Below, piece after piece: positions 6,090 to 38,940 of a DNA stretch of 64,000 nucleotides; position 1 is the first letter of the stretch; each line of letters opens with the position of its first letter. This DNA comes from Thermoanaerobaculia bacterium (GTDB lineage Bacteria > Acidobacteriota > Thermoanaerobaculia > UBA5066 > Gp7-AA6). Position numbers and translations under genes: made by a program. The stretch covers positions 1,713 through 65,712 of the forward strand of contig JBBROA010000002.1 in the NCBI GenBank assembly GCA_038229875.1, written 5' to 3'. Under the pieces are notes generated by a model. It was given only the letters and a program-made list of their open reading frames with translations, was not told where the DNA came from and made no database searches.

Positions 6090-6824
6090 TTGGCCCCGCA
6101 GTCCGAGCAGACGCTCCGGGATCGCGTGGCGCTCGTCACGGGCGCCTCGTCCGGCCAGGGCCGCGCGTTCGCGGAGGGGCTCGCGCGCGCCGGCGCCAGA
6201 GTCTTCGCGGTCGCCCGGCGGGAAGAGCTGCTCCGCTCGCTCGTCACCGAGATTTGCGATTCGGGCGGTGAGGCCGCGTATCACGTCGTCGACGTGCGCT
6301 CCATTCCCGCCGTTTTCGACCTCGTGGACGTCGTGCTCGCCCGCTATCGCCGCATCGACATCCTGATCAACGCCGCGGGCATCGGCTACCGCGCTCCGTT
6401 GATCGAGCTCAAGCGGTCGCAGATCGAGGAGATGCTCGCGACCGATCTTGCCGGAGCGATCTACCTGACCTCGGCGGCGCTGCCGTCACTGATCAAGAGC
6501 GCTCCCGCGCACATCGTGAACGTGGCCTCGATCGCGGGGCTCGAGGGGTTCGCCGAGGGCTCGGTCTACTGCGCCGCGAAACACGGGCTCGTGGGCTTCA
6601 CGCGCGCGCTCGCGCAGGAATTGAAACCGCAGGGGGTGCGCGTGACGGCGCTCTGCTCCGGGTCGGTCGACACCGAGTTCTTCGACCGTTTCCGTCCGAC
6701 CACGGAGAAGAGCCAGCGACTGCGGCCGGAAGATGTGTTGGCCGCGCTCCTCGGAATCCTGACGTCGCCGCCGCACGTGCTGCATGGCGAAGTCGTGCTG
6801 CGGCCGAGGGTCGTTCCGGCCTAG
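6090..6824 (+). CDS. SDR-family short-chain dehydrogenase/reductase
   Basis: VALVTGASSGQGRA is the TGxxxGxG motif; NAAG; YCAAKHG is the YxxxK motif. The TTG start at 6090 could instead be GTG at 6126. A TGATAAT -10-like box lies at about 6071. Confidence 0.85.
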   Translation: MAPQSEQTLRDRVALVTGASSGQGRAFAEGLARAGARVFAVARREELLRSLVTEICDSGGEAAYHVVDVRSIPAVFDLVDVVLARYRRIDILINAAGIGYRAPLIELKRSQIEEMLATDLAGAIYLTSAALPSLIKSAPAHIVNVASIAGLEGFAEGSVYCAAKHGLVGFTRALAQELKPQGVRVTALCSGSVDTEFFDRFRPTTEKSQRLRPEDVLAALLGILTSPPHVLHGEVVLRPRVVPA

Positions 6825-6940
6825 TCACCCCGGCGTGCCGACGGCGTTGCGATTCGATGCCGGAAGGGCGCGCCTTCACGGACCTGCCTCGCCCCGCTCG
6901 GCCCCGGCCCGCTGATTGGCCCGCCCCTATAATCGAGGGC

Positions 6941-7633
6941 ATGAGCTCCGTCCTTCTCGTCGACGACACCGGCCTCTTCGACGCTGTCGCCGACGACATC
7001 GCGCGACGGACCCACTGCCGCCCGCTGCGCGCCAGGAACGGGACGGAGGCGCTCGCGACCGCGCGGCGCGAGAAGCCGGACCTGATCTTCCTGGACGCCG
7101 AAATGTCGGGGATGACAGGGATCGACGTGTGTCGGGTACTGAAGGCGGACTCTCACCTCGGGCACCGTCCGGTCGTGGTCGCGGCGGCGACGCCGATCTC
7201 GGCGGACGCGGCCCGCCGCGCCGGTGCGGACGAGTGCATCGACAAGCCCTTCGACACCCCGGTCGTCTTCGACACGATGCGGCGGTACCTTCAGCTCTCG
7301 CCTCGCGACGCGGCGCGGGCGGCGGTCGAGTGGTCGGTGACGTTCTGGCGCGACGGCGCGCAGCACGAGGGCACTCTCCGCGACCTCTCGCGCGGCGGTT
7401 TCTTCATCCGGACTCCCGTGCGCCAACCAGTCGGCGCCAGGCTCGAGATCTCGTTCGAGCTGCCCGGACAGAAAGGCCGGACGGTCGTCGCGGAGGCGAT
7501 CGTGGTGCGCGTCGGGCAGGAATCGGACCGCGGACTCGGGTGCCGGTTCTTCCGGCTGACCGCGGGGTCGCGGACGCACCTCGAGGAGTGCCTGCGGCTG
7601 CTGGAGACGCCGGTGCCGGCGGGAAAGCGCTAG
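6941..7633 (+). CDS. response regulator: receiver domain fused to a C-terminal PilZ (c-di-GMP-binding) domain
   Basis: MSSVLLVDDTG...DLIFLDAEMSGMTG...KP is the receiver part. RDGAQHEGTLRDLSRGGFFIRT carries the RxxxR and DxSxGG PilZ motifs. A TATAAT lies 7 nt before the ATG, so a leaderless start is possible. Confidence 0.8.
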   Translation: MSSVLLVDDTGLFDAVADDIARRTHCRPLRARNGTEALATARREKPDLIFLDAEMSGMTGIDVCRVLKADSHLGHRPVVVAAATPISADAARRAGADECIDKPFDTPVVFDTMRRYLQLSPRDAARAAVEWSVTFWRDGAQHEGTLRDLSRGGFFIRTPVRQPVGARLEISFELPGQKGRTVVAEAIVVRVGQESDRGLGCRFFRLTAGSRTHLEECLRLLETPVPAGKR

Positions 7634-13328: not shown

Positions 13329-13496
13329 TAACGTATATCAAACATGCCGGGATCTGAACAAAAATATGCACGCCACCGTACCAACCTCCAAAAAACCCTC
13401 CGGCGGGTCGGACGCACCGGATCTGGTATCCCCGCCCGCAATGGCCACAATAAGTTGTGGAACACTCCGGGGGCTTTTGCTAGATTCGTGAACACG

Positions 13497-16400
13497 ATGT
13501 TCAAACTCGAGCGGGTGCAGATCTCGGGCTTCAAGTCCTTCTACGAGAAGGTCGACCTCGCATTTCCGGGCAGCGTCACGGCGGTCGTGGGCCCGAACGG
13601 GTGTGGCAAATCGAACATCAGTGACGCGGTCTCGTGGGCGCTCGGCGAACAGAGCGCCAAGACGCTGCGTGGCGAGCGCATGGACGACGTCATCTTCAAC
13701 GGATCCGCCAGGCGGCGCCCGCTCGGAATGTGCGAGGTCATCCTGACGCTCTCGACCCGCGCCCGGGTGAGCGCGCGTCAGGACGGGAAGAGCAACGGCG
13801 ACGGGGACGGGGCGGACGGCGGCGGCGAAAACGGCCACGGCGCCGGGAACGGTAACGGGAACGGGGGAAGCGAGACCGACGGCGACCTGCTGCGGATCGG
13901 GCGTCGGGTGTACCGCGAAGGGACCGGCGAATACTTCTTAAACGACAAGCAGGTCCGGTTGAAGGACATCCAGGACAAGCTGCTCGGCACCGGTCTCGGC
14001 GTGCGCGCGTATTCGGTGATCGAGCAGGGACGGATCGATCAGGTGCTCTCGACCAAGCCGCAGGACCGGCGCCGGCTCATCGAAGAGGCGTCCGGCATCA
14101 CGCGATACAAGCTCAAGAAGCGGCTCGCGGAAGGCAAGCTCGAAGAGACGCGCGGCAACCTTCTGAGGATCTCGGACATCGTGTCGGAGATCGAGAAGAA
14201 CGTGGCGTCCTTGAAGCGGCAGGCGTCTCGCGCCGCGAAGTACCGCGAACAATCCGACGCGCTTCGCGGGAAAAAAGCGGCGCTCGCGAGAACGCGGCAC
14301 GACGTGCTCCAGGCGGCGGTCGCCGAAGCGGAGCGGACGCGGGACGCGCGGCGCGACGTCGAAGCCGCCGCCGCCGCCGCGCTCGGTCGCGCGGAGTCGG
14401 AGCTCGCGGCGGCGCGGCTCGCGGCGGCGGACCTCCAGGCCGAACGCGACCGTCTCCGGGACGCGGTCGCCGCGCTCGAAAACGCGATCCAGCGCGATGA
14501 CGCGCTGCTCGAGGGCAACCGTCGCGCCGCGGCGGATCTCGCCGACCGCCGCGCCTCGCTCGAGCGAGAAGGCCGCGATGTCGCCGCCGAGCACACCAGG
14601 TCCGCCGCGGAGCTCACGGAGCTGGAGGAGCGGCTCGAGCGCGCGGTGGCCGAGGCCCGCTCCCGCTCCCTGGCCCGCGAAGACGCGGACAGCCGGGCCG
14701 CAGCGGGCGCCTCCGCTTTCTCGGAGCTCGAGCGCGAGCTCGACCGGGCACGGGAGGACGCGCTTCTCGCCGCCGGCGAAAGAGTCACCGCCCGCAACGC
14801 GCGCCACGAGGTGGACCTCGAAGCCTCTCGCGCCACCGCTTCGCTGGCCCGGCTCGAGGAAGCGCACGCGCGGGCGGTCTCGGAGCTCGCGCTGCGGGAA
14901 AAGGAAGTCGAGGCCGCTCTCGAAGAGGAGCGGCGCCTGACCCGGGAGGCGGCGGACGCGCGGGCTGAGACCGAGGCCTGGGAGGCGGAGCTGTCCCGCC
15001 TCGCCGGCGCGCTGGCCGAATCCGAGGTCGCGCGAGAGACGGCGCGCGAGGGCCTCTCGATCTCGGAGCACCGCCTGGGAGCGTTGAACGAGATCTGGAA
15101 GAGCCGGCAGGGCAACCTCCACGCGGTCCGGGGCGCGCTGGCCACCGCCGGTATCGCGGAAGCGGGAGCGCTGGCCGACCGGCTGATGCCGGCCGTCGGA
15201 TGGGAGGAAGCGGTCGACCTTCTTCTGGGGGAAGACCTCGAAGCGATCGTGTGCGGCGGAGACCCCGAGGCCGCGGTCGAAGCCTCCCGGGGGCTCGCCT
15301 CCGCGACCTTCGTGCGAAGCGGTTGGACGGACGAGCGCGGCGCCTCGCGGGTCGCGGGAACCGAGGGTGGCTGGGAGATTGCACTTCAGAACTTCAACAG
15401 CCTCTCTCCCGCCGAGCGCGCGGCGCTCCCGCCCGTTGCCCTCGTTTCAACTTTCGCCGCCGCCCTCGAGCTCTCGGGCATCCACCCGGAGACGACGTTC
15501 GTGACGCGCCGGCGCGAGCTCGTCCGGGGCTCCCTGGTTCGCGTCGTCCACACGCCTCCCGAGGCGTCCGGCCTGTTCGCCCTCCGCCGCGACATCGACC
15601 GCCTCGGGCTCGAAACCGCCCGGGCCCGCGAAAGCGTCGCCGCGCTCGACCGGTCGATCGAAGACCTTCGCCGCGCGCGGCACGAATGCGAGGCGGCCAT
15701 GCCGGCCCGACGTGACCGGGAGCGTGAGGCCAGCGGCCGGCTTTCCGGGTTCGTGGCGCGTTTCGAAGAGCGGCGCGCCGAACGGGACCGACTGGCGCGA
15801 GAGCGAGAGACGCTCGAAACGGAGGCCGTCGCTCTCCGCCAGGAATCCGAACGCCTGGCGGGCGCCCGCTCCGCGCTCGAGGCCGACGAACGGGCTCACG
15901 GCACCCGGGAGGCGTCGATCCGCGAGCGCGCGGAAAAGCTCGCCAGCGCGCTGCCCGAGGCGCGCTCCTTTGCCGCCGCGGCGGCCGACGAGCTCGCCCA
16001 CCGGCGAACGGAGGCGGAGGTCGCGGCCGAAAGAAGGCGTTCGCTCGAAACCGCGCGCGAGAAGCTCGTCGAAGCTCGGGGCATCCTGGAGCGGCGGATG
16101 GGAGACGCATTCGAAGAGGGGCGGCGGCTCACGGAACGCGCGGAGGAGCTCGCGCGCGAGGAGTCGGAAGCCCGAGCGCGGCAAGCGGAGAACATCAGAG
16201 CGCGGGAGACCGCGTCGGAAGAGCTCGAGGCCGCGTCCGCGACAGCGACGGAAGCGGGAACCAGCGTGCTTACCGCCGAGGACGGCACGAAGGTCGAGCG
16301 CGCCACGCTCGACGCGGCCCGCGAAGCGCGATTCGAAGCGGAGGTCGGCGAGACACGGATTCGATCCGACTTCGACCACGCGACAGCTCAGGCACAGGAC

Positions 16401-17102
16401 GAATTCGGTGTGCCGCCGGCCTCCCTGGATGCTCCGGAAGATCGCTCTCCCGAGGCGCTCACGGCCCTCGAGGAAGAGGTCGCGACGCTCGCGGCGTCCA
16501 TCGAGAGACTCGGACCCGTCAACCTCCTCGCGCTCGAGGAGCATCGCGAAAGCTCGGAGCGGCTCCTCTTTCTGACCGCGCAGCGCGACGACCTGTTGAA
16601 ATCGGTGGCCGAGCTCCAGGATTCGATTCGCAAGATCAACGCGACGTCCTCGGAACGCTTCCGGCAGGCGTTCGAGGCGGTCAATGAGAACTTCAAGGCG
16701 ATGTTCTCGCGTCTCTTTCAGGGAGGCGCGGCCGAGATGCGCCTTCTGGACGACAACGACCTTCTCGAGTCCGGGGTCGAGATCATCGCGCAGCCGCCCG
16801 GAAAGCGAAACCAGTCGATTCAGCTTCTTTCCGGAGGCGAAAAGGCGCTGACCGCGATCGCCCTGCTGATGGCGATCTTCCGCTACAAACCTTCCCCGTT
16901 CTGCATCCTCGACGAGGTCGACGCTCCCCTCGACGAGGCAAACATCGACCGCTTCACGAAGCTCCTCCGCGACATGACCGACGACACGCAGTTCATCGCG
17001 ATCACCCATAACAAACGGACGATGGAAACCGCGGACGTCATGTACGGGGTCACGATGGAGGAGCCCGGCTGCTCGAAGATCGTCTCGGTTCGGTTCGACT
17101 GA
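13497..17102 (+). CDS. smc: chromosome segregation protein SMC
   Basis: MFKLERVQISGFKSFYEKVDLAFPGSVTAVVGPNGCGKSNISDA (Walker A); long coiled coils; a C-terminal LSGGEKALTAIALLMAIF...ILDEVDAPLDEAN signature/Walker B. Confidence 0.92.
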   Translation: MFKLERVQISGFKSFYEKVDLAFPGSVTAVVGPNGCGKSNISDAVSWALGEQSAKTLRGERMDDVIFNGSARRRPLGMCEVILTLSTRARVSARQDGKSNGDGDGADGGGENGHGAGNGNGNGGSETDGDLLRIGRRVYREGTGEYFLNDKQVRLKDIQDKLLGTGLGVRAYSVIEQGRIDQVLSTKPQDRRRLIEEASGITRYKLKKRLAEGKLEETRGNLLRISDIVSEIEKNVASLKRQASRAAKYREQSDALRGKKAALARTRHDVLQAAVAEAERTRDARRDVEAAAAAALGRAESELAAARLAAADLQAERDRLRDAVAALENAIQRDDALLEGNRRAAADLADRRASLEREGRDVAAEHTRSAAELTELEERLERAVAEARSRSLAREDADSRAAAGASAFSELERELDRAREDALLAAGERVTARNARHEVDLEASRATASLARLEEAHARAVSELALREKEVEAALEEERRLTREAADARAETEAWEAELSRLAGALAESEVARETAREGLSISEHRLGALNEIWKSRQGNLHAVRGALATAGIAEAGALADRLMPAVGWEEAVDLLLGEDLEAIVCGGDPEAAVEASRGLASATFVRSGWTDERGASRVAGTEGGWEIALQNFNSLSPAERAALPPVALVSTFAAALELSGIHPETTFVTRRRELVRGSLVRVVHTPPEASGLFALRRDIDRLGLETARARESVAALDRSIEDLRRARHECEAAMPARRDREREASGRLSGFVARFEERRAERDRLARERETLETEAVALRQESERLAGARSALEADERAHGTREASIRERAEKLASALPEARSFAAAAADELAHRRTEAEVAAERRRSLETAREKLVEARGILERRMGDAFEEGRRLTERAEELAREESEARARQAENIRARETASEELEAASATATEAGTSVLTAEDGTKVERATLDAAREARFEAEVGETRIRSDFDHATAQAQDEFGVPPASLDAPEDRSPEALTALEEEVATLAASIERLGPVNLLALEEHRESSERLLFLTAQRDDLLKSVAELQDSIRKINATSSERFRQAFEAVNENFKAMFSRLFQGGAAEMRLLDDNDLLESGVEIIAQPPGKRNQSIQLLSGGEKALTAIALLMAIFRYKPSPFCILDEVDAPLDEANIDRFTKLLRDMTDDTQFIAITHNKRTMETADVMYGVTMEEPGCSKIVSVRFD

Positions 17103-17174
17103 CGGCGCGGACGAGCCCGGTTCCGAGTCCCGCCGGGGCGAAGAGAGAGGCTCCTCCGGGCGCCCTTTCCGGCC

Positions 17175-17203
17175 GCTGACAAGCGCAACCGTCCCTGCTA
17201 AGA
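17175..17203 (+). promoter_or_regulatory. putative sigma70 promoter for tRNA-Thr (CTGACA - 17 nt - TAAGAT)
   Basis: The -35-like CTGACA and the -10-like TAAGAT are spaced 17 nt apart. The -10 ends about 20 nt before the mature tRNA 5' end. Confidence 0.4.
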
Positions 17204-17222
17204 TCCGCCGTCCGGTCATCCC

Positions 17223-17298
17223 GCCGACGTAGCTCAGTTGGTAGAGCAGCGGTTTCGTAAACCGCAGGTCCCCGGTTCAAATCCGGGCGTCGGCTCCA
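17223..17298 (+). tRNA. tRNA-Thr (anticodon CGU)
   Basis: The read is GCCGACGTAGCTCAGTTGGTAGAGCAGCGGTTTCGTAAACCGCAGGTCCCCGGTTCAAATCCGGGCGTCGGCTCCA. The 7-bp acceptor stem GCCGACG/CGTCGGC closes it. The D-loop reads AGCTCAGTTGGTAGAGC. The anticodon loop reads TTCGTAA. The T-loop reads GGTTCAAATCC. CCA is encoded. Confidence 0.9.
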
Positions 17299-17407
17299 TC
17301 ACCCGCTTCGGGCGTCGCGGTCCGCGTCGCGACGGCCGGTTCCCCCCGGAATCGTCCCGGCCTCACAATGCGGTGAGACGCCATTGCATCCGCGACGAAG
17401 GAGATCC

Positions 17408-17704
17408 ATGCGGATCGCTTTTCATGCCTTGCGGGCCGGCAGCCGGTTCGGCCGCCTCTTCACCGCCGTGGCGCTCTCTCTGGCGCTCCTGACCGTGCCC
17501 GCGTGCCACGGATCTGGCACCCCGCGACCGAAACCGTCAACGCTCTCGCCCGCGCGGCGAGGAATCCACACCTACCACTTGCGGCTCGGCGTTCGGGTTT
17601 CCCGAGCGGCAGTCAGAGATCCAATCACTAGTTCCAAACGAAGGACATTGACGTTCTTCGAGGGCTTTCCGGTCACCCTTCGGAAGCCCGAACCCGACTG
17701 CTAG
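17408..17704 (+). CDS. possible small secreted protein or lipoprotein (98 aa)
   Basis: AAGGAG Shine-Dalgarno 5 nt before the ATG. MRIAFHALRAGSRFGRLFTAVALSLALLTVPAC is a signal peptide with a Cys at a lipobox-like position. Confidence 0.3.
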   Translation: MRIAFHALRAGSRFGRLFTAVALSLALLTVPACHGSGTPRPKPSTLSPARRGIHTYHLRLGVRVSRAAVRDPITSSKRRTLTFFEGFPVTLRKPEPDC

Positions 17705-17976
17705 CCCCCGGCTGCGGCGGAGTCGGCGGAACGAGGCTAACCTGCTACGGCGGCCCGGAGGGAGTCTGTAGAAGTCGAAAAGAGATTCTCCGCGCGTATC
17801 TGGAGAAGCTCGCCGTGCGCGGTAAGGCTAAGGCCGCTAAGTACTCGACCATTCTTAGTATCAGGGTTTTCGCATCACGCGACCGTAAACCCTGACGAGG
17901 ACAATAAAGATCGTCAAGACGGCCAAGATTAATAAGACTTCAGGTAACCCGATCCGTCCAAACATAAGCGTCCCCC

Positions 17977-20340
17977 TTACCGTCCGCCGGGAGTAACGAA
18001 GCCCGGCCGGTCCTGTTGCCATGCGAGGCTGACGCCAGTCGTCATCGGAACGCCAATGATTCCGATCATGTCTTTGACATCTTTGTAAGGGTCGTAGCGG
18101 TTAGCGGCATCTCCGCCCGGTGAAAGCGCTAGGACCACGTACGATCCGGGAGAGAGCAAGTCACAGGCATGTACCTCGGAATTCATGTCAGGCTGCATTA
18201 ACGATTCGATTGACAGCCCGTTAGCAGCCGCGGCCTGCCGAAGCACGGAAATGGGTATTTCCATCCCGTTCCTGACGAAAAGCAGAATAGCGTCTCGACG
18301 TGGAACCCCGAGCTTCCCGAGCACCTTGAGGCCCGGACCTGAAACAAATGGCGACAAAGTTAAAGTTAACGTGTTTGTCTTCTCATCCGCAGACGGATCG
18401 GCGCTGGCGGGTAAGAGGGCGGTTTGAACGGTGAATCCAGGGGCGAATACGTAAACGGGGAGCATTTCCCCCGCCAGCTCCTCGAGGACAAGCTCACCTT
18501 GCCCGTCCGTAACACCGAGCGAGCGCAGCGGAGCCAGGCGAGGCGCCATGCGACGCGGATGGACCGGCACCATTACTTGCGCATTAGGAATGCCTTCGCC
18601 CCTGAGATCTCGAACGGCGACTCTGAACGGGGCCGCCTTGTCCAAATCGATCTCAAGGTTCCGAGTCTCCGTGCCAAGAGCGTCGACAAGGAGTTGTTTT
18701 CGCGAGTGGCCCTCGGCTCTTCCGGCGATCGTCAAGGTCCCGTCCTCGAGATCTCCGAAGGACGCTTTCCCGAACTCATCGGTGGGTTTCGTTTCCGAGC
18801 GGTGCTCTCCCGCCAGGCTTTCAAAGCTGGCATCCAAGAGCCCCGGAATGGGGCGGCCCGATGAGCGGTCTCGGAGGGTTACTGCGACAGTTCCACCCCT
18901 GAAAACGATATCGAAAAGCGTCTCGGGTTCCTTCGCCTCAACGCTACCCCCTCGGCGCGTTCCGTCCGGAAGCGACGCCGAAACGTAGACATGACATGCG
19001 CACCCTACAGTCAACGCGTAGCTACCATCTGCGCTCGAGATCGTTTCGCCTAACGTCGTACTCTCTTGACCCATGATTCTGGCGAACGGGATGATTCTGA
19101 TCGCGGCGTCAGCTGCGGGTTGGTCCCCGCGAAGTACCCGCCCTCTGACCACTCTCGAAGCAAACACCACTGTGAGACTTGGGTTCTCGGCTGTCGCGAC
19201 GTCCACGTCTTTTTCGCCGTAAGCCCACAAGCCGGCGGCTTTTCCCTCAGCCCTGTAATGCCCCGACTCGGAGATGGGTATCTCGACACTGTTCCCTTGG
19301 GCGAGATCACCTCGCCAGACGATTGTTTCGGAGCCCCTCCTGGTTACTTCCAACGCGTTGGCTGACGTAACGTTCTCTGTGATCTTCTTGAGGACGACAT
19401 TCACGTCGCCAGCAAGGGGCGAATCTGATTTCGCGCTCACCACCAATTTTGGAAGTGTTCTGAGTGCGATGTCAAAAAATCGGTCCCCCTGTGCCCTCGA
19501 AATCTCCCTGGCATTGACCTCCGCCGGACGATAACCTGCCACTCGGACATTCCAGGAATGAGGCACTTCGGGGAGACGATCTACGACAACATTTCCCGAA
19601 GCGTCTGGACGGAGTGTCCGAGATTCTAACCAGAGCGCGACCAGCCGCCCAGAAGCGGTTGATCCGGCAGAAACCCAGTTCACAGTGATTCTTGTCACAT
19701 CGCCGGGAGGTGGTCGAAGACGGATCGTTTCAGCGTGACCCCGTTGAGAGATCGGCGACGCAAGGCTCCTCGCTTCGCCCGGAAGTAGGGCAAGATCGGG
19801 GATGATGGCGGGGGCGGACTCGCCATCATCGAACAAAACGTCCCACCGGTCGGGTGGAAGAACGAACGCGACTACGCTTGGCGATGGCGATGACGTATCG
19901 GCTCGCATCTCCCGGCGCCCGTCCTGAGAACGTGCCACCAAAAGAGGGGGATTCGTCGCCCGAACCGGTCTTGGCAGCCTGATTTGCAGTGTAGCGAGCG
20001 CGTTGAATGTTACGGGCTGTCGCCATTGAGCCCGGGGTAGAGTGACGACATCAAACCCGGGCGCGGTGAGCGTCAGCTCGGTCATTGACTCTTCAACCGG
20101 CAGGACTATCGTATCGGCGTGCGGCGTCAGGATCTGGTCAAATGTGCGAATCCCCTTCACGCCGGCGCCGACTACACGGATCGACTTGGAAGCGGATCGG
20201 CCTACCCATCGGAGCGAGAGTCTGATCTGGCGGATCGATGCCTTTTCCGAGCCCGCCTGACTCGGGTTCGGTGGCGAAACGGGCTGGGAGGAAGTGATAG
20301 CCGCGAAAAAAAAGATGGTGGCAGCGCCGAGGTATCCCAT
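17977..20340 (-). CDS. large secreted protein with multiple carboxypeptidase-regulatory-like (CarbopepD_reg) Ig-like domains
   Basis: GGAGGA Shine-Dalgarno. Signal peptide MGYLGAATIFFFAAITSS. Repeated RGRVLRGDQPAADAAIRIIP...SADGSYAL modules. TAA stop. Local GC is about 55-58% against roughly 69% background. Confidence 0.7.
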   Translation of the reverse strand: MGYLGAATIFFFAAITSSQPVSPPNPSQAGSEKASIRQIRLSLRWVGRSASKSIRVVGAGVKGIRTFDQILTPHADTIVLPVEESMTELTLTAPGFDVVTLPRAQWRQPVTFNALATLQIRLPRPVRATNPPLLVARSQDGRREMRADTSSPSPSVVAFVLPPDRWDVLFDDGESAPAIIPDLALLPGEARSLASPISQRGHAETIRLRPPPGDVTRITVNWVSAGSTASGRLVALWLESRTLRPDASGNVVVDRLPEVPHSWNVRVAGYRPAEVNAREISRAQGDRFFDIALRTLPKLVVSAKSDSPLAGDVNVVLKKITENVTSANALEVTRRGSETIVWRGDLAQGNSVEIPISESGHYRAEGKAAGLWAYGEKDVDVATAENPSLTVVFASRVVRGRVLRGDQPAADAAIRIIPFARIMGQESTTLGETISSADGSYALTVGCACHVYVSASLPDGTRRGGSVEAKEPETLFDIVFRGGTVAVTLRDRSSGRPIPGLLDASFESLAGEHRSETKPTDEFGKASFGDLEDGTLTIAGRAEGHSRKQLLVDALGTETRNLEIDLDKAAPFRVAVRDLRGEGIPNAQVMVPVHPRRMAPRLAPLRSLGVTDGQGELVLEELAGEMLPVYVFAPGFTVQTALLPASADPSADEKTNTLTLTLSPFVSGPGLKVLGKLGVPRRDAILLFVRNGMEIPISVLRQAAAANGLSIESLMQPDMNSEVHACDLLSPGSYVVLALSPGGDAANRYDPYKDVKDMIGIIGVPMTTGVSLAWQQDRPGFVTPGGR

Positions 20341-20398
20341 TTGTCCTCCTCAACCCGTCGCCAGAATGTCGAATACAGTCGAACCTGAACGCTGACTG

Positions 20399-20767
20399 TT
20401 AATAGAGAGGCGATCGCATCAGGCATCCACCGTAAAGATCGGTCCACCAGCAGTCCAATCCAGGGCCGTATAAGGGATCACGATCCGGTCGGTTGTCAGC
20501 CGGGCCGTAATATTCGCACCTGTTCCCATTGGAGTTGCACTGGGGCCAAGGCGACATGAAGGTGTAGCAGTGATCGGTTCCCGGCGGGTCTCCATATGTG
20601 ACCGTGGCGCAAAACCCAGTTTGGAGCGTCTGGGTTCCGAGCTGTATCTCGTTGCAGGCTTCGCAAGCCGTTGCCTGCGTTGGATATAGCATCAACAAGA
20701 GCAGAGCTCCACTCAGAACGAGAAGACTTCGAGGGACCTTTCCCCCGCCCGGTCGGTAAGGACGCAT
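20399..20767 (-). CDS. small cysteine-rich secreted protein (8 Cys, about 90-aa mature peptide)
   Basis: AGGAGG Shine-Dalgarno 6 nt before the ATG. MRPYRPGGGKVPRSLLVLSGALLLLMLYPTQATA is the signal peptide. The mature part is ACEAC...GFC...DHC...PQC...NRC...LDC...GGC. It is co-directional with, and 58 bp upstream of, the large CarbopepD protein. Confidence 0.6.
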   Translation of the reverse strand: MRPYRPGGGKVPRSLLVLSGALLLLMLYPTQATACEACNEIQLGTQTLQTGFCATVTYGDPPGTDHCYTFMSPWPQCNSNGNRCEYYGPADNRPDRDPLYGPGLDCWWTDLYGGCLMRSPLY

Positions 20768-21268
20768 ACGCCCCCTCCTAATAGATCTGCGACACCAAAA
20801 GGATGCCGGATCTGACACCTTCTTGTCGCGAGGATCCAGAGACCGTAAGGCACCCCCCAATTGACGGTTGCGCAGAGGCCGTTCACACGAGAGTCGTCGT
20901 CTTGACCCGAACGCGACTGCAGTCGCCCCCTCGTCCTTCGTTGCCTACGGAGAACCAAAAGGACTCCCCCAACGTCCCCACAGTGGCACCGGGCGGCTAC
21001 GCCTCCGGGCGTCCCCCAACCCCGGGGCACTCCCCCCAGACTGCCGGACACGAGAACGAAGGCTGGTGGGCACACACCGAGCAGGGTTTACGCCGCGACA
21101 AACCCCCTCCGCGAGCTTTTTCCCCTGCTGAAGCTCTGGTGGTGTACGCTATCGTACATTAAAGCCGCCGCTGGCCTCTCCCGCATCGTTTCCACCCTCT
21201 CCGAGCGGCTCCTGGAAGGTCCGCCTGTCCGCGATTTTGAGGCATCCGCGCCCTGGCCGCGGAGAAGT

Positions 21269-22009
21269 GTGCCGACGGAACGGCGGATCGCGAGGGCGCC
21301 TTACGCGTCCGATTCGGGCCCGGAAAGAAGGCGGATACCCGGCGCGGCGACCGACGCGCGCGCTCTCGTCGTCGAGGACGACCCGGACCTGAACGAAGCG
21401 ATCTGTTTCCTGCTGGCGAGCGACGGATTCCAACCTGTCGGGGTCTTCAACGGCGCCGAAGCGCTGGCGGTCCTGGCGGATAAGACCGCCCCGCTCCCGT
21501 CCGTGATCCTCGCCGACCTCGCGATGCCGGTCATGAATGGATGGGAGCTCCGCGCGCGGCTCGAAGCGGACACTCGCGTCTCCCGGATTCCCCTGCTGGT
21601 CCTCTCGACGTTCGTCGATGACAACGTCGAAGTCTCCGGTGAACGCCCTGAAATGCAGCTGTCGAAACCCTTCGGCGCTGAAATGCTTCTGCTCTGCGTC
21701 AATCGTCTCGTGGGACCGCGGGTCGGCGTGGGACGCGCGCGCGTCTTCGAGAATCTCGTCTGCCGCCTTTCTAAAGATCAGAGCGCGGTCTCATTCCTTC
21801 TCGATGAAGACGACAAGCTACCCCTCTTTTCTCTGCCCGTCCGCCGATTCTCGATTCGCATCCTGCGCGAGATTGCATCGGGGTTGGTGCGTGGCAGCGT
21901 CGGGGCTCCCGAGCTCGGGGGGACGCGCCGGCTGCTTCTCTCCCGTACCTGGGGCGGCGCGGAGATCTTGAGCCGCTTCGAAGAGATTCGCGTCGACGGC
22001 GATCCCTGA
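21269..22009 (+). CDS. response-regulator receiver-domain protein with an uncharacterised C-terminal extension
   Basis: ALVVEDDPDLNEAICFLLASDGF...ILADLAMPVMNGWEL...LLVLS...KP is a receiver domain. GTG start. I see no recognisable output domain. Confidence 0.65.
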   Translation: MPTERRIARAPYASDSGPERRRIPGAATDARALVVEDDPDLNEAICFLLASDGFQPVGVFNGAEALAVLADKTAPLPSVILADLAMPVMNGWELRARLEADTRVSRIPLLVLSTFVDDNVEVSGERPEMQLSKPFGAEMLLLCVNRLVGPRVGVGRARVFENLVCRLSKDQSAVSFLLDEDDKLPLFSLPVRRFSIRILREIASGLVRGSVGAPELGGTRRLLLSRTWGGAEILSRFEEIRVDGDP

Positions 22010-30250: not shown

Positions 30251-32224
30251 TCATCCCTCTTTGTCCTCGTACTGACTCTTCAGGGACGACACCACCGTCG
30301 GATCCGCCAGGGTTGTCGTGTCTCCGAGGACCCGCCCTTCGGCGATGTCCCGCAGCAGGCGTCGCATGATCTTTCCCGACCTCGTCTTCGGCAGGTCGGC
30401 GGTGAAGAAGAGCCGCTCCGGCTTCGCGATCGCGCCGATCTTCTTCGCGACGTGCGCCAGGAGCTCCGCGCGGAGCCCGTTTCCGCCGGCCGCGGCCGCT
30501 CCCGTCTGGGACTTTTCCTTCAGGATGACGAATGCGGCAATCGCGGTGCCCTTGATTTCGTCGTTCACACCCACGACCGCGGCCTCCGCCACCGCGGGAT
30601 GATCGACGAGCGCCGACTCGACCTCCATCGTACCGATGCGGTGTCCGGCCACGTTCATGACGTCGTCGACGCGCCCGAGCAACCAGAAATACCCGTCCTT
30701 GTCGCGCTTCGCGCCGTCACCCGCGAAATAGGTCTCCTCGTTCCACTTCGACCAGTAGGTCTTCACGTACCGCTCGTCGTCGCGCCAGATCGTCCGCAGC
30801 ATGGCGGGCCAGGGACGTGTGATCGCGAGGTACCCTCCGCCCACACCGACCTTACGGCCGTCCTGATCCAGGATTTCCGCGCGGACTCCGGGGAAGGCCT
30901 GAGTCGCCGACCCCGGTCGCGTCGTCGTGATGCCCGGCAGCGGCGTGATCATGATCATTCCGGTTTCCGTCTGCCACCAGGTGTCGACGACCGGACACTT
31001 CCCGCCGCCGATGTGCGTCTGGTACCAGATCCACGCTTCGGGGTTGATCGGCTCTCCGACGGATCCTAAAAGGCGGAGCGAGGAGAGATCGTGCTTCTCG
31101 GGCCACTCCGTCCCCCACTTCATGAACGCGCGAATCGCCGTCGGGGCGGTGTACAGGATCGTGACGCCGTGGCGCTCGATGAGCTCCCAGAAACGCCCGC
31201 GCGTCGGGGCATCGGGCGCTCCTTCGTACATGAGACAGGTGGCCCCGTTCGCGAGCGGACCGTAGACCACGTATGAGTGCCCGGTGACCCAGCCGATGTC
31301 CGCCGTGCACCAGTAGACATCGTCTTCCTTCAGGTCGAACACCCACTTACTCGTGGCGTAGGTCCCGAGGAGGTACCCGGCCGTGGTGTGCAGGATGCCC
31401 TTCGGCTTTCCGGTCGTTCCGGACGTGTAGAGGATGTACAGGGGATCCTCGGAATCCATCTTCTCCGGGGGGCACTGCGACAGGGCGCCTGACATCAGCT
31501 CGGACCACCAGAGATCCCGACCCGCTTGCCAGCTCACTTCGGTCCCGGTCCGCTTGACGACGATCATCTTTTGGATGGTCGGGGTGTCGATCAGCGCCTC
31601 GTCGGAGATCTTCTTCAACGGAACGATGTTTCCCCGGCGCCATCCGCCGTCCGCAGTCACCAGGATCTTCGCGCCCTGGTCGTTGATGCGGTCCCGCAGC
31701 GACTCGGCGGAGAACCCCCCGAACACGACCGAATGGATCGCTCCGATCCGGGCACACGCGAGCATGGCGACCGGCAGCTCCGGGATCATCGGCATGTAGA
31801 GGGTGACGCGGTCGCCCTTTCCGACTCCCAGGGACTTCAGCACGTTCGCGAATCTGGAAACTTCGCGGAGGAGCTCCCGATACGTGATGGTGCGGGTGTC
31901 ACCGGGCTCGCCCTCCCAGATCAGGGCGGCCTTGTTGGCGCGGGGTCCCCGGGCATGCCGGTCGACGCAGTTCACAGACGCGTTCAGCTTGCCGCCGACG
32001 AACCATTTCGCCCTCGGCGGCTTCCAGTCGAGGACCTTTTTCCAGGGCTTCATCCACTCGAGCTCGCCCGCGAAACGCTCCCAGAACTTCTCGAAATCGC
32101 GGTCGGCCTTCGCGTACACCGCGGGGTTCGACACGTTTGCCGCCGCCGTGAAGGCCTTCGGCGGCTTGAAACGGCGTTTTTCGAGGAGCAGGGCTTCGAT
32201 CGTCTCGTCCGGTCTGGTCGCCAT
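30251..32224 (-). CDS. acs: acetyl-CoA synthetase
   Basis: Full-length match in pattern: [17 protein letters not shown], the C-terminal lysine region [10 protein letters not shown], 657 aa. Confidence 0.93.
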
Positions 32225-32643
32225 TGCCGACTCTTCTCTTTCCGAGGACGACCGCCCCGGGGAGGGACGAGACCTCGAGGACGAATGTTATTCCCAAATC
32301 CCCGCCGGAACCGAAGAAGCCTTGACTTCGGTTAAGCCTGTGAAACACAGTGCCCCCACGACTGGTCAATGCCCGGTGCCTGCCGCCGGCCGCCGCCCTC
32401 GCGGAGAGCGAGAACCGTCCGGGGCGACGGCTCCGGTGTCTCCGTTCCTGGACGTGCCCCCCCTCCCGGATCGGACTCCGCGGGCCGCGAACCCGGGACC
32501 GGACGCCCCATGAACGCCGGCGTACCGGGCGTTTCTCCTCTGCGAACGTGTCGTAGCTCCACAGTAAAATTCCCGGTCGAAGTCCCCGGCAACGCTCGAT
32601 TCGGACTTCGCGCATCTCTAAACTTTTAGGAGAGGGAGGGTTC

Positions 32644-34260
32644 ATGGCGACCGGAACCATGGAGAGACAGGCGCCCACCGGCGCCCTCACAGCGGATGAG
32701 AGACGGGTCATCTTCGCCTCTTCACTCGGAACGGTCTTCGAGTGGTACGACTTCTACCTCTACGCGACACTCGCTCCCTTTTTCGCCGCGCTCTTTTTTC
32801 CTCCGGGCAACGCGACGGCCGCCCTTCTGTCTTCTTTCGTGACCTACGCGGCCGGATTCCTCGTGCGTCCCTTCGGCGCGCTCTTCTTCGGACGCATCGG
32901 AGACCTCGTCGGGCGGAAGTACACGTTCCTCGTGACGATCGTGGTCATGGGCGCTTCGACCGCGGCGGTCGGTCTTCTGCCCACCTACGCCAAGATCGGC
33001 TTCGTTGCTCCGATCCTGCTCGTGCTCCTGCGACTCCTGCAGGGCCTCGCGCTCGGCGGCGAGTACGGCGGAGCCGCGACCTACGTGGCCGAGCATGCGC
33101 GGCCCGGCCGCCGCGGCTACAGCACGGCCTGGATCCAGACCACCGCGACTCTCGGCCTGTTCATGTCCCTCCTGATCATCGGGTTCTGCCGCTGGAAGAT
33201 GGGACCGGACGATTTCAAGGCCTGGGGCTGGCGGATTCCCTTCCTGCTTTCGGTCGTCCTGCTGGGGTTCTCGATCTACATCCGGTTGAAGCTGCAGGAA
33301 TCTCCGATCTTCAAGCGCATGAAAGCCGAGGGGAAGGGTTCCAAGGCTCCCCTGACCGAAAGCTTCGCCACCTGGTCGAACGCGAAGATCGTCCTGCTCG
33401 CTCTCTTCGGGGCGACCGCCGGCCAGGGCGTCGTCTGGTACGCGGGACAGTTCTACGCCCTCTTCTTCCTGACGCTCTACCTGAAGCTCGACTACCTGAC
33501 GGCCTACATACTGATCGCCGCCGCGCTCCTGATCGGGACTCCGTTCTTCATCGTGTTCGGATCCCTGTCGGACCGGATCGGCCGCAAGTGGATCATCATG
33601 GTCGGGTGCCTTCTCGGCGCGCTGACTTTCTTTCCCCTGTTCAAGGGGCTGACTCATTACGTCAACCCGGGCCTCGAGCAGTACGCCGCGGCGACTCCGA
33701 TCACGGTGGCTGCCGACGACTGCAGGATGCACATCTTCCCCACCCCCAAGACCGTGTTTTCGCCCTGCGACAAGGCCAAGGATTTCCTGACCAAGGCCGG
33801 GCTCTCCTTCACGTCGGGTCCCGCCGTCGCGGGCGAGCCCGTCGTCACGACGATCGGGAGCGCTCCCCCGCTTCACGGTTATGACGAGGACAAATACAAG
33901 GCGGCGTTGAAGGCGTCGGGCTACCCGGCCGCGCCGGACAAGGCCCGCATCAACTACCCCATGACTCTCCTGATTCTCGTGATTCTGGTGCTCTACGTCA
34001 CGATGGTGTACGGGCCGATCGCCGCGTTCTTAGTCGAGCTCTTCCCGACCCGGATCCGATACACCTCGATGTCTCTGCCATACCACATCGGAAACGGATG
34101 GTTCGGAGGGATGCTCCCGCTTCTGGCGACCGCGCTCGTCGCCTCCCGGGGAAACATCTACGCCGGTCTCTGGTATCCGGTCGTCGTGGCCGCCATCACC
34201 TTCGTCATCGGAGCGTTGTTTCTCAAGGAGACGAAGGACAGGGACATCCAGGCAATCTGA
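32644..34260 (+). CDS. MFS transporter, metabolite:H+ symporter (MHS) family
   Basis: 12 TM segments; GRIGDLVGRKYTF; a large central loop; AGGAGAGGGAGGG Shine-Dalgarno. Confidence 0.88.
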   Translation: MATGTMERQAPTGALTADERRVIFASSLGTVFEWYDFYLYATLAPFFAALFFPPGNATAALLSSFVTYAAGFLVRPFGALFFGRIGDLVGRKYTFLVTIVVMGASTAAVGLLPTYAKIGFVAPILLVLLRLLQGLALGGEYGGAATYVAEHARPGRRGYSTAWIQTTATLGLFMSLLIIGFCRWKMGPDDFKAWGWRIPFLLSVVLLGFSIYIRLKLQESPIFKRMKAEGKGSKAPLTESFATWSNAKIVLLALFGATAGQGVVWYAGQFYALFFLTLYLKLDYLTAYILIAAALLIGTPFFIVFGSLSDRIGRKWIIMVGCLLGALTFFPLFKGLTHYVNPGLEQYAAATPITVAADDCRMHIFPTPKTVFSPCDKAKDFLTKAGLSFTSGPAVAGEPVVTTIGSAPPLHGYDEDKYKAALKASGYPAAPDKARINYPMTLLILVILVLYVTMVYGPIAAFLVELFPTRIRYTSMSLPYHIGNGWFGGMLPLLATALVASRGNIYAGLWYPVVVAAITFVIGALFLKETKDRDIQAI

Positions 34261-34270
34261 GGCCATCTTC

Positions 34271-34299
34271 CCGGCGGCGATGAGCCGCCGGTTCTTTTT
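34271..34299 (+). terminator. intrinsic terminator after the MFS gene
   Basis: CCGGCGGC-GATGA-GCCGCCGG is a perfect 8-bp stem, followed by TTCTTTTT. Confidence 0.6.
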
Positions 34300-34337
34300 G
34301 AGGCGGAGTTCGTACGGAACGAAATAAGGAGGAGAGC

Positions 34338-35573
34338 ATGACTCGACGGTTTCTTCGATTCGCCCTGGTCGCGCTTGCGGTCGCCGGGCTTGCGCCCGCC
34401 GCAGCGCCGGCCCAGGTGGTCGTGAAGGTCAGCGATACGGTGAATCTCCGACTCGGCTTCCAGCTTCAGGGATGGGCGGAATTCCTTCAGGACCCGGTGA
34501 CGGAGGGCTACCAGAAAAACTTCAAGCTCCGCCGCGTGCGCCTGATCGTGGCCGGCCAGGTCGCGAAGAATGTGACGTTCTTCTTCCAGACCGACAACGC
34601 GAACCTGGGAGCGTCGGTCGGGACGGCCACAAAGGCGATCAACACCGGGCTTCTCATCCAGGACGCCTTCGGCGAGTGGCATCCATTCAGCAACGACCTG
34701 TTCATCCTCGACTTCGGCAAGATGCTCATCCCCTTCACCCGCAATTCGCTTCAGAGCACGTCGAGCCATCTCGCGCTCGACGGCGGCACGTGGACATTCC
34801 TCCAGGTCGCTGGCGAGCAGAGCGATGCGGGGCGCGATGTCGGCATCCAGCTCAAGACCTATCTGGCGGGCGATCACCTCGAGATCCGCACCGGCCTCTT
34901 CGACGGCTTTCGCGCTCCGACCAACACGGCCGTGGGCACCACGAACGGTTCGCGCAATCCCTACCGCTTCGCCGGCCGGATCGTTTACAACGTGTTCGAC
35001 ACGGAAAAGGGCTACGTCCCAGTCGGCACGAACCTCGGCAAGAAGAAAATCCTCGCCTTCGGCGCCGGATATGACTCGCAGGGCGGGTACACGGCGCCGT
35101 CGACGGCGACTCTTCCCTCCGGCGACGGTTACAAGGCGTACGGCGGGGACATCATGCTGGACTTGCCTGTGGGCCCGGGCGATATGAAGACGGGAAAGAG
35201 CGCGTTTACGGCCCACGCCGACTTCATCCACTATGACGGCGGCTGCGGCATCACGCCCCTGGGGACCCGCGCGACGAACTGCCTCATTCCGTCTCTGTCG
35301 CCGGAGCGGGAACTCTTCACCGACGTCGGCTTCTACTTCAAGCCGATCGAGCTCCAGCCGTTCGTGCGGTACGAGACGCTCCAGTTCACGGACAGCATCG
35401 AGCACGGGCGCAACATTCGGCGCTACATGGGCGGATTCAACTACTACGTCGCGCAGCAGAACATGAAGATCACGGCGGCGTACGAGCGAATCGTCCCCGG
35501 AACGAAGCCGGCGACCGCGGCGGTCAAGAACACCAATCACTTCGTGGTTCAGCTTCAGTTCTATTACTTCTAG
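34338..35573 (+). CDS. putative outer-membrane beta-barrel porin
   Basis: Signal peptide MTRRFLRFALVALAVAGLAPAAAPAQ. Alternating amphipathic strands. The C-terminus ends QFYYF with an aromatic residue. Confidence 0.6.
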   Translation: MTRRFLRFALVALAVAGLAPAAAPAQVVVKVSDTVNLRLGFQLQGWAEFLQDPVTEGYQKNFKLRRVRLIVAGQVAKNVTFFFQTDNANLGASVGTATKAINTGLLIQDAFGEWHPFSNDLFILDFGKMLIPFTRNSLQSTSSHLALDGGTWTFLQVAGEQSDAGRDVGIQLKTYLAGDHLEIRTGLFDGFRAPTNTAVGTTNGSRNPYRFAGRIVYNVFDTEKGYVPVGTNLGKKKILAFGAGYDSQGGYTAPSTATLPSGDGYKAYGGDIMLDLPVGPGDMKTGKSAFTAHADFIHYDGGCGITPLGTRATNCLIPSLSPERELFTDVGFYFKPIELQPFVRYETLQFTDSIEHGRNIRRYMGGFNYYVAQQNMKITAAYERIVPGTKPATAAVKNTNHFVVQLQFYYF

Positions 35574-35604
35574 TCGGGTGGGAACAGGGGGCGAAGGAGG
35601 ACCA

Positions 35605-36942
35605 ATGTCGAAAAAGAACAAAAACGGTCTGACCCGCCGGCAGTTCGTGAAGGTGACGGGAACGGGGGCGCTCGCCGCAGGGGTCGGCGCCAACTTCCTG
35701 TTCCCGGCGCGCGCTGCGGCGCAGCAGAAGACGCTTCGCATCATCCAGTGGAGCCATTTCGTTCCGGGCTACGACAAGTGGTTCGACAACACGTACACGA
35801 AGGAATGGGGCGCGAAGAACAACACGAACGTCGTCGTGGACCACATTGCGATCGGGGAGATCAACGCCCGCGCGGCCGCGGAGGTCTCGGCGAAGAAGGG
35901 TCATGACCTGTTCATGTTCCTCTCCCCTCCCGCGGCTTACGAAAAGCAGGTCATCGACCACTCCGAGATCTACCAGACCGTCGAAAAGAAGCACGGCAAA
36001 AAGATCGATCTCGCGCACAAATCGACCTACAACCCGAAGACGAAGAAATACTTCGCGTTCTCGGACTCCTATGTGCCCGACCCGGGCAATTACCGGAAGG
36101 ATCTCTGGGAAAAAGTCGGATACCCGAACGGGCCCGACACCTGGGAAGACCTCCGCATCGGCGGCAAGAAGATCAAGGACAGCGTCGGAAACCCGGTCGG
36201 AATCGGGCTCTCGCAGGAGCTCGACACCAACATGGCCGTTCGGGCGCTTCTCTGGTCCTACGGCGGGTCCGAGCAGGACGAGAACGGCAATGTCACGATC
36301 AATTCGAAGCAGACCGTGGAAGCCCTCAAGTACATGCGCGCGATGTTCAAGGAGTGCATGACCCCCGAGGTGTTCACCTGGGATCCCTCCTCGAACAACC
36401 GGGGCATCCTGGCCGGCAAGCTGTCGTTCGTCGCCAACGCGATCTCGGTGACGCGCACCGCGGAGAAGGACAACCCGGAGATGTCGAAGAACATCCAGGT
36501 GGCCCCGGCCTTGAAGGGCCCGGTCCGCCGGATCGCGGCGGAGCACGTCATGGACTGCTACGCGATCTGGAACTTTGCCGAGAACCAGGAGGGCGCCAAG
36601 CAGTTCTTAGTCGACTACATCGACAACTTCGGCGCGGCGTTCAAGGCGAGCGAGTTCTACAACTTTCCCTCGTTTCCGAGCACGGTCCCCGACATCAAGG
36701 CGCAGCTCGCGAACGATCCGAAGGGCGTTCCGAACGACAAGTACAAGGTCCTGTCCAACGTCCTCGAATGGGCGACCAACGTGGGATACCCGGGGTACGC
36801 GACCGCCGGAATCGACGAGGTCTTCAACACCTTCGTTCTGCCGACCATGTTCGCCCGCGCGGCGCGCGAAGAGGTCACGCCGGAGGAGGCCGTGAAGACC
36901 GCGGAAGCGGAGATCAAGCGCATCTTCGCCAAATGGAAGTAA
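35605..36942 (+). CDS. ABC transporter substrate-binding protein (Tat signal), operon 1
   Basis: GAAGGAGG Shine-Dalgarno. TRRQFVKVTGTGALAAGVG is a twin-arginine signal. It is a paralogue of the SBP at 55070. Confidence 0.85.
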   Translation: MSKKNKNGLTRRQFVKVTGTGALAAGVGANFLFPARAAAQQKTLRIIQWSHFVPGYDKWFDNTYTKEWGAKNNTNVVVDHIAIGEINARAAAEVSAKKGHDLFMFLSPPAAYEKQVIDHSEIYQTVEKKHGKKIDLAHKSTYNPKTKKYFAFSDSYVPDPGNYRKDLWEKVGYPNGPDTWEDLRIGGKKIKDSVGNPVGIGLSQELDTNMAVRALLWSYGGSEQDENGNVTINSKQTVEALKYMRAMFKECMTPEVFTWDPSSNNRGILAGKLSFVANAISVTRTAEKDNPEMSKNIQVAPALKGPVRRIAAEHVMDCYAIWNFAENQEGAKQFLVDYIDNFGAAFKASEFYNFPSFPSTVPDIKAQLANDPKGVPNDKYKVLSNVLEWATNVGYPGYATAGIDEVFNTFVLPTMFARAAREEVTPEEAVKTAEAEIKRIFAKWK

Positions 36943-36963
36943 GAAGGTAAGCTCACCCGCGCC

Positions 36964-38930: not shown

Positions 38931-38940
38931 GCAGGAATTC

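Follow-up and report, generated by a model that had tools for sequence, protein, structure and literature searches.

We analyzed a stretch of 64,000 nucleotides (hereafter, the window) from a Thermoanaerobaculia bacterium, and we focus here on a segment of about 3.8 kb that begins directly at the 3′ end of a tRNA gene and that is specific to the window. The tRNA gene, tRNA-Thr(CGT), occupies positions 17223-17298 on the plus strand; it was found by ARAGORN, scores 74 bits against Rfam and is the sole Rfam match in the region. It forms the left boundary of the variable segment. Upstream, at 13344-17102 and also on the plus strand, is an SMC chromosome-segregation gene (TIGR02168, 856 bits) whose GC content at third codon positions (GC3) is 0.84, and which serves as the native left flank and as our synteny anchor. 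The segment itself extends from 17299 to 21103, with a right end that falls between 21104 and 21139, and has an overall GC content of 59.9%. An element of this kind that is under 10 kb is called a genomic islet, and we use this term below. The core of the islet is an operon on the minus strand, in the order CYS (20399-20767; 122 amino acids), BIG (17977-20340; 787 amino acids) and a gene for a 34-amino-acid (34-aa) membrane peptide (17861-17965). The operon's non-coding leader or promoter region (20768-21103) is likewise specific to the window, and has no homology to the spacers of related genomes. The native right flank then follows at 21140-22009, where a palindromic block precedes a response-regulator gene on the plus strand (PF00072; annotated start codon GTG at 21269).

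An original prediction, made from the sequence alone, described this region as a low-GC genomic island that lies beside the tRNA and encodes two secreted proteins. Both long open reading frames (ORFs) do have a hydrophobic, signal-like segment at their N-termini, as judged by inspection, and 17700-21000 is the GC minimum of the window. We consider it likely, with good confidence, that a lineage-specific islet occupies positions 17299 to about 21103-21139, in a variable slot adjacent to the tRNA, and that the three genes of its low-GC core form an operon gained by horizontal transfer. That the 3.8-kb stretch was very probably acquired horizontally follows from three observations, namely that the segment is absent from close relatives, that codon and stop-codon usage in its cargo is atypical and that the breakpoint is located exactly at the 3′ end of the tRNA.

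The compositional contrast is pronounced. GC content is 58.7% at 17700-21000 and 60.0% at 17300-21260, while the rest of the window measures 67.1%, which is somewhat below the background of about 69% that had been assumed. Among all 3.3-kb stretches of the window (mean 66.7%, standard deviation 2.9), 17700-21000 has the lowest value. The GC profile falls from 65-75% upstream to 55-62% at about 17600-21000. The predicted drop is thus real, but it does not begin at the tRNA: the first part of the islet (17299-17704) has 66.0% GC, and the low-GC core, with 58.4%, corresponds to the operon at 17861-20767. The right edge (20768-21115, 64.4%) is also close to the host in composition.

Codon usage, which had been suggested as a check, proved strongly atypical. 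GC3 is 0.626 in BIG (z = -6.3) and 0.610 in CYS (z = -6.7), as against 0.846 +/- 0.035 in the 43 background genes of the window, the lowest of which has 0.769. The GC3 deficit of the islet genes falls at silent sites. Both genes also end in the stop codon TAA, which is used by 2 of the 43 background genes; here the original prediction was accurate. It had further pointed to textbook Shine-Dalgarno (SD) sequences as foreign-looking translation signals. BIG and CYS are indeed preceded by the SD GAGGAGGA or AGGAGG (AGGAGG in the case of CYS). However, these strong SDs are not distinctive, because 9 to 13 of the background genes also have a strong SD core upstream (at least 5 nt of AGGAGG), and the argument from translation signals adds little.

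It might be proposed that the low GC content merely reflects amino-acid composition, or the weak codon bias of a fast-evolving and weakly expressed accessory operon. A second part of the window illustrates the first of these effects: at 30251-39792, GC content dips to 61-64%, yet GC3 is 0.85-0.89 and it is the first and second codon positions that are low in GC. Amino-acid composition alone accounts for this dip, with no part played by foreign DNA, and the region provides an internal contrast to the islet. The proposal also draws support from homologous CYS-BIG cassettes, whose GC3 is below that of their neighbors in four other contigs (L032, L035, L037 and L039; we label the loci and contigs used for comparison with L-numbers). 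However, the deficit in the islet lies at third codon positions (z about -6), so amino acids are not its cause, and the genes are absent from all relatives. A weak codon bias could add to the signal but cannot stand in for acquisition, and we regard composition as an improbable explanation.

For comparison with related genomes, we searched the GTDB species representatives with the SMC gene and obtained 30 loci, almost all from metagenome-assembled genomes of Acidobacteriota or Thermoanaerobaculia. Of the 25 related loci that were scanned, 24 have tRNA-Thr(CGT) next after the SMC gene. The closest relative, L001, has an SMC protein 95% identical to that of the window, and five others (L002, L004, L013, L015 and L018) have 85-89% identity. 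All six of these relatives keep the gene order FHA/Fis regulator, SMC, tRNA-Thr, response regulator, orf106 and S8 subtilase, and the syntenic response-regulator gene is 74-92% identical in relatives. In none of the six is BIG, CYS, the 34-aa ORF or a further 98-aa ORF of the islet encoded. The comparison with related genomes had been proposed as a test that could refute the idea of acquisition beside the tRNA, and its outcome favors that idea.

The boundaries of the islet are best seen in the alignment with L001, which is about 94% identical in the flanking DNA. Homology detected by blastn ends at 17298 and restarts at 21140; in the pairwise alignment, it is weak at first, from 21104, and becomes solid at 21140. 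The tRNA-Thr is identical in the two genomes, and divergence sets in directly after the discriminator base. We found no homology between the islet and the relatives' DNA, including comparisons of the islet's edges with the relatives' spacers, and no remnant of the cassette.

What occupies the slot differs among the relatives. L001 has an unrelated segment of 1.8 kb (13921-15698 of that locus; 64% GC) with two minus-strand ORFs of 159 amino acids (with a signal peptide) and 140 amino acids, neither of which matches Pfam. In L002, L004 and L013, the slot holds an EamA transporter gene, and in L015 and L018 it consists of 565-606 bp of non-coding DNA. The interval between tRNA-Thr(CGT) and the response regulator is a replacement hotspot in this lineage of Thermoanaerobaculia.

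This instability bears on the possibility that the low-GC genes are ancestral at the tRNA, with separate losses in all of the relatives sampled. With four different contents in relatives, the slot is unstable, and deletions must occur. However, the idea requires several independent losses, including one in L001, with its flanks of about 94% DNA identity; it leaves unexplained both a GC3 of 0.61-0.63, where the 43 other genes have at least 0.77, and the TAA stop codons; and no relative retains a remnant of the cassette. Ancestral presence is, in our judgment, very improbable. For a related reason, we do not favor the earlier suggestion of an old, decayed island. The gain looks fairly recent, because the islet is absent from a sister with flanks about 94% identical and because its GC3 has not drifted to host values. 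The donor was probably a lineage of lower GC content.

Since the window derives from a metagenome-assembled genome, it is also important to consider the possibility of a chimera, formed in assembly or binning, in which a piece of another organism's DNA was joined on within the conserved tRNA. Chimeric joins are classically found in tRNA genes, and one of the contigs that covers the islet, L031, ends inside the tRNA. That Logan contig (run SRR24807096) is 100% identical to the window over 17241-20398 and spans the junction between tRNA and islet; another, L044 (run SRR19962015), is 100% identical over 19421-20989. The segment is not an assembly artefact, because contigs from two different sequencing runs reproduce the tRNA-islet junction and the interior identically. 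A chimera is also unlikely because, after 3.8 kb, exact synteny returns without any repeat at the join. We consider such an artificial join extremely improbable.

As the original prediction had observed, an integrase is lacking: no ORF of the islet matches Phage_integrase in Pfam, a tblastn search with the integrase of contig L035 (see below) finds nothing in 17299-21139, and six-frame translation of 17299-17976 reveals no integrase remnant. Nor is there a clear direct repeat of the tRNA's 3′ end, as a dedicated search confirmed; the best local-alignment scores are 10.5-13, as compared to 9.5-13.5 for shuffled sequences. Terminal direct or inverted repeats flanking the segment do not exceed chance. 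In 23 relatives, no integrase was seen among the first ORFs 3′ of tRNA-Thr, where we looked by eye and not with a hidden Markov model. Searches of PHROGs and PADLOC yielded no phage or defense families, and searches of plasmids, IMG/VR and JGI metagenomes with a protein query and a 26-nt DNA pattern yielded no relatives. Judging by sequence, the islet appears to be neither a prophage remnant nor a defense island.

Two routes of entry can be envisaged. An element with a tyrosine integrase might have integrated site-specifically at the tRNA, after which int and attR were lost; we see this as a real possibility, though one that falls somewhat short of an even chance. Alternatively, recombination at the hotspot might have occurred independently of any integrase, which we put forward tentatively, as a conceivable route that is clearly short of even.

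We turn now to the cargo. BIG matches PF13620 (CarboxypepD_reg) with 46.2 bits, above the cut-off of 32.3, and the same family is matched by all 18 of the aligned members of the BIG family, some of which also match Big_1. A word-indexed search of 5.8 billion clustered proteins retrieved only BIG itself, while HMMER, applied to 1.84 billion representatives, retrieved 42 other relatives at E <= 0.001, of which 18 have E <= 1e-10. The closest are six full-length proteins with 31-34% identity and 749-794 amino acids. Around these is a looser shell of proteins with 23-30% identity and similar length; overall, relatives in the family span 749-806 amino acids.

An AlphaFold 2 (AF2) model of BIG, built from the family alignment, is confident, with a mean predicted local distance difference test (pLDDT) score of 82.6. 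It consists of about seven beta-sandwich domains (transthyretin- or immunoglobulin (Ig)-like), and is all-beta except for a C-terminal alpha/beta domain at residues ~685-780, which carries much of the conservation in the family. Foldseek searches with the model gave only generic strings of Ig-like domains, with TM-scores of at most 0.19, and of no more than 0.14 when the full length of the query is considered; the types of protein matched were pilins, PitA, MSCRAMM adhesins, SdrD, the macroglobulin (MG) domains of alpha-2-macroglobulin, and phage fibre or baseplate proteins. In the PDB, the family profile has a weak match to NOMO2 and to a transthyretin-like protein, and sequence searches there with BIG gave nothing else that is informative. 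We detected no catalytic domain or thioester motif in BIG.

The partner protein, CYS, has eight cysteines. It contains a cleavage-type site (ATA|CEAC), such that the mature protein is predicted to begin with CEAC, and it ends with GCLMRSPLY. Across eight CYS homologues, seven cysteines and one glycine are invariant. The mature N-terminus in these homologues is CExC or CKxC, and the C-terminus is GCxxPLY in the window, L033 and L035. CYS has no match in Pfam, NCBIfam or PDB, and a word-index protein search found only CYS itself; a profile search uncovered five unnamed relatives in addition to the window's protein.

The two genes form a conserved pair. A CYS homologue adjoins BIG in all 11 of the distinct contexts that we examined (the window, L032-L037, L039, L040, L042 and L043; L038 repeats L037, and L041 repeats L040), and this holds for either gene order. 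CYS precedes BIG in the window, L032, L033, L034, L035, L036 (partial), L037/L038 and L042, and comes after it in L039, L040/L041 and L043, which are more distant. The closest relatives of CYS are in L033 (46% identity) and L035 (37%), whose contigs have 60-62% GC, like the islet.

A third gene often follows the cassette, and encodes a membrane protein of 118-142 amino acids that, by eye, has several hydrophobic helices. This gene is seen downstream in L033, L034, L035, L037 and L042, and is absent from L039 and L040. The membrane proteins form two unrelated families, and the window has the 34-aa peptide in their place. With a third gene this variable, and missing altogether from some cassettes, the conserved core is CYS and BIG only.

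In L032, L037 and L038, the cassette is flanked by genes for an extracytoplasmic function (ECF) sigma factor (Sigma70_r2/r4) and for tetratricopeptide repeat (TPR) proteins. The TPR proteins at 6380-7267 and 11094-12521 of L032 and at 3-1487 and 6156-7595 of L037 share a near-identical C-terminal tail (...VPEGFAAVALLRESVKRRKTDPNAL..LRE.LQ.QN in L032). Given their pairing with an ECF-type sigma factor, these TPR proteins may serve specifically to regulate the CYS-BIG module in the lineages concerned. We saw no promoter motif common to the islet operon's leader and the homologous cassettes.

In two contigs, a cassette lies near a tRNA or an apparent tRNA. In L035, the cassette is followed by a tyrosine integrase (PF00589), and the contig ends about 100 bp past the integrase gene in GAGAGTGGCGGAACTGGCAGACGCGCG, which by eye resembles the 5′ part of a class II tRNA. 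In L036, the 3′ end of a tRNA-Asn faces the cassette from about 1.1 kb. Separately, the integrase ORF of L035 (4236-5446) has an internal duplication, DHVF(I/L)GRRG(E/D)PI.DVRGGFDAAVL.VWKP, which suggests the remnant of a second, degraded integrase.

As to function, CYS and BIG would both be exported by Sec. BIG would then form an elongated rod or scaffold of beta-sandwich domains, whose C-terminal alpha/beta domain is a putative site for binding or presenting CYS, the disulfide-rich partner, at the cell surface or within the envelope. The module might thus be an accessory adhesion or envelope module, which in some lineages would be controlled by the adjoining ECF sigma and TPR genes.

We also considered that the operon could encode a bacteriocin-like secreted toxin system, with CYS as the disulfide-rich toxin, BIG as the protein that carries or delivers it, and immunity conferred by the small membrane protein. 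A small, exported, cysteine-rich protein together with a multi-helix membrane protein in L033, L034, L035, L037 and L042 would suit such a system, as would a patchy and mobile-looking distribution and low GC3. However, the supposed immunity factor varies: its proteins belong to two unrelated families, L039 and L040 lack it, and the window has a 34-aa peptide instead. Moreover, Pfam, NCBIfam and PADLOC give no match to a bacteriocin, immunity or export-ABC family. A toxin system thus seems unlikely to us.

A more far-reaching hypothesis is that CYS and BIG constitute a previously undescribed two-protein extracytoplasmic system, in which a disulfide-rich protein of about 90 amino acids in mature form, starting with CxxC, is paired with a rod of about 780 amino acids that is built of beta-sandwich domains and has a C-terminal domain specific to the family. 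Such a system would be rare; it would move by horizontal transfer into variable slots of the chromosome, with ECF-sigma control in some lineages, and would have a function outside the known classes of adhesin, pilin and bacteriocin, e.g., a secreted effector that is displayed or delivered on a rod-like carrier. We offer this hypothesis as a speculative one that we doubt more than we believe.

It is important to emphasize that several observations weigh against parts of this account. With regard to acquisition, the truly foreign DNA may amount to only about 3 kb, because the edges of the segment are near host GC. The lower GC3 of the four homologous cassettes mentioned above implies that low GC3 may in part be characteristic of the family, and so may not mark the donor cleanly. 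The donor itself was not found in our searches, in which the best relative of BIG is 34% identical. The right junction lies outside the cover of the independent assemblies. With regard to the mode of entry, the window has no integrase, integrase remnant or tRNA-fragment repeat, so that an integrase route would depend on analogy with a single contig, L035. In that contig, the integrase faces the apparent 5′ end of a tRNA, and not the 3′ end, which is a geometry unlike that of the window. The notion that the cassette travels into tRNA-proximal variable regions fits what is seen in the homologues (the low GC3 of several cassettes, the GC content of the L033 and L035 contigs, and the arrangements in L035 and L036), but the observations are few and the geometry of L035 differs. 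With regard to function, the AF2 model of CYS is unusable (pLDDT 46), and the ~120-amino-acid membrane partner of other cassettes is missing in the window.

The remainder of the islet lies between the tRNA and BIG. This DNA had been described as AT-richer and non-coding, a description that is too simple: the interval of 678 bp contains a 98-aa ORF and the 34-aa ORF, and only 156 bp are outside both. The 98-aa ORF (17408-17704, plus strand) has the SD GAAGGAGA and a lipoprotein-like signal sequence, and was also called in the Logan assembly. Its GC3 is 0.737 (z = -3.1), its cluster is a singleton, and it has no match in Pfam, NCBIfam, PADLOC or PHROGs. We treat it as a putative gene.

The 34-aa ORF, which is the third gene of the operon, begins 11 nt past the stop codon of BIG, has a GC3 of 0.60 and was also called in L031. 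It encodes a single-helix membrane peptide. Residues 1-14 of its N-terminus (MFGRIGLPEVLLIL) are weakly TatA-like, with a pairwise E-value of 0.001 against a TatAd sequence. We do not assign it to the TatA/E family, given that there is no Pfam match at E <= 10, that the FG hinge is replaced by FI and that the peptide ends at 34 amino acids. It may be a truncated TatA relic or a generic membrane helix, and we treat the resemblance as a weak lead. We also considered whether it is what is left of the ~120-amino-acid membrane proteins of homologous cassettes, and found no such remnant in the window.

A small hairpin that had been noted in this interval, CAGGGTTT-N17-AAACCCTG (17862-17894, as read from the sequence), does appear in the predicted fold. 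However, shuffled sequences are as stable as this region (z = -0.09), and the stop codon of the 34-aa ORF lies within the hairpin's span. As a candidate terminator it was rejected, for it is not followed by a run of T and its stability is no better than that of the shuffles.

Some features of the flanks are also worth recording. An imperfect palindrome, GGTGTACGCTATCGTACATT (GTACG-N4-CGTAC; 21141-21160), is located 5′ of the response-regulator gene and is conserved in L001, L002, L004 and L013. The reading frame of the response regulator remains open 5′ of the GTG at 21269, and this extension (region 21119-21268) includes the conserved peptide ...STL(S/T)ERL... in its translation. This upstream stretch contains no ATG, GTG or TTG in the window and in L001, while L004 has an ATG directly after the motif. 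Either the response regulator starts at a non-canonical codon (possibly the ATT at 21158) or the palindromic block is a regulatory element. On the other side of the tRNA, locus L021, from a more distant relative, has about 7 kb (13637-20650) between SMC and tRNA-Thr, versus about 100 bp in other loci, a hint that variation also occurs at a second point, 5′ of the tRNA.

As an islet, the segment is a textbook case, and knowledge of the slot helps in annotating genomes and in reading the accessory content of this lineage. We regard the cargo as more valuable than the islet, since it is a rare, conserved and unannotated secreted pair. Little is understood of the proteins that uncultured Acidobacteriota secrete or carry on their surface, and an apparently mobile module of two genes is a tractable target.

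How, then, does the segment compare to known systems? Integrase-mediated islands at tRNA genes have been catalogued by Islander (PMC4383910). The segment has in common with tRNA-associated islands its position at the 3′ end of a tRNA, its atypical composition and codon usage, its sporadic occurrence among close relatives, in that it is absent from those that keep the flanks, and an accessory secreted cargo. It differs in that there is no tyrosine integrase and no displaced tRNA fragment (the attR repeat) at the far end. It also differs in size: tRNA-associated islands measure about 10-200 kb, and the segment, with about 3.8 kb, belongs to the islet class. The original classification as a genomic island is thus apt as to location and composition, but not as to integrase, attachment repeat or size. 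Given the unrelated cargo in the relatives' slot, the segment behaves like a replacement hotspot and not like a recognizable mobile element, and the most fitting name for it is an integrase-less genomic islet in a variable slot beside the tRNA.

The module, too, can be compared with known systems. The homologous cassettes of L032, L037 and L038 resemble ECF sigma-linked extracytoplasmic modules, but the cassette in the window has no sigma or TPR gene, and its neighbor is the native receiver-domain response regulator. We rejected the idea that BIG is a bacterial alpha-2-macroglobulin. Those proteins have about 1500-2000 amino acids, the motif CxEQ and a bait region; BIG has 787 amino acids and three cysteines (in GCACH and ACDLL), none of which is in CxEQ, and the likeness is confined to the fold of the MG domains. 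Like NOMO, Gram-positive pilins, MSCRAMM adhesins and MG-domain proteins, BIG is predicted to be a rod of tandem transthyretin- or Ig-like beta-sandwiches. It differs in having no sortase motif, no thioester CxEQ and no recognizable isopeptide signature, and in possessing a family-specific C-terminal alpha/beta domain and an obligatory partner gene that encodes a cysteine-rich protein.

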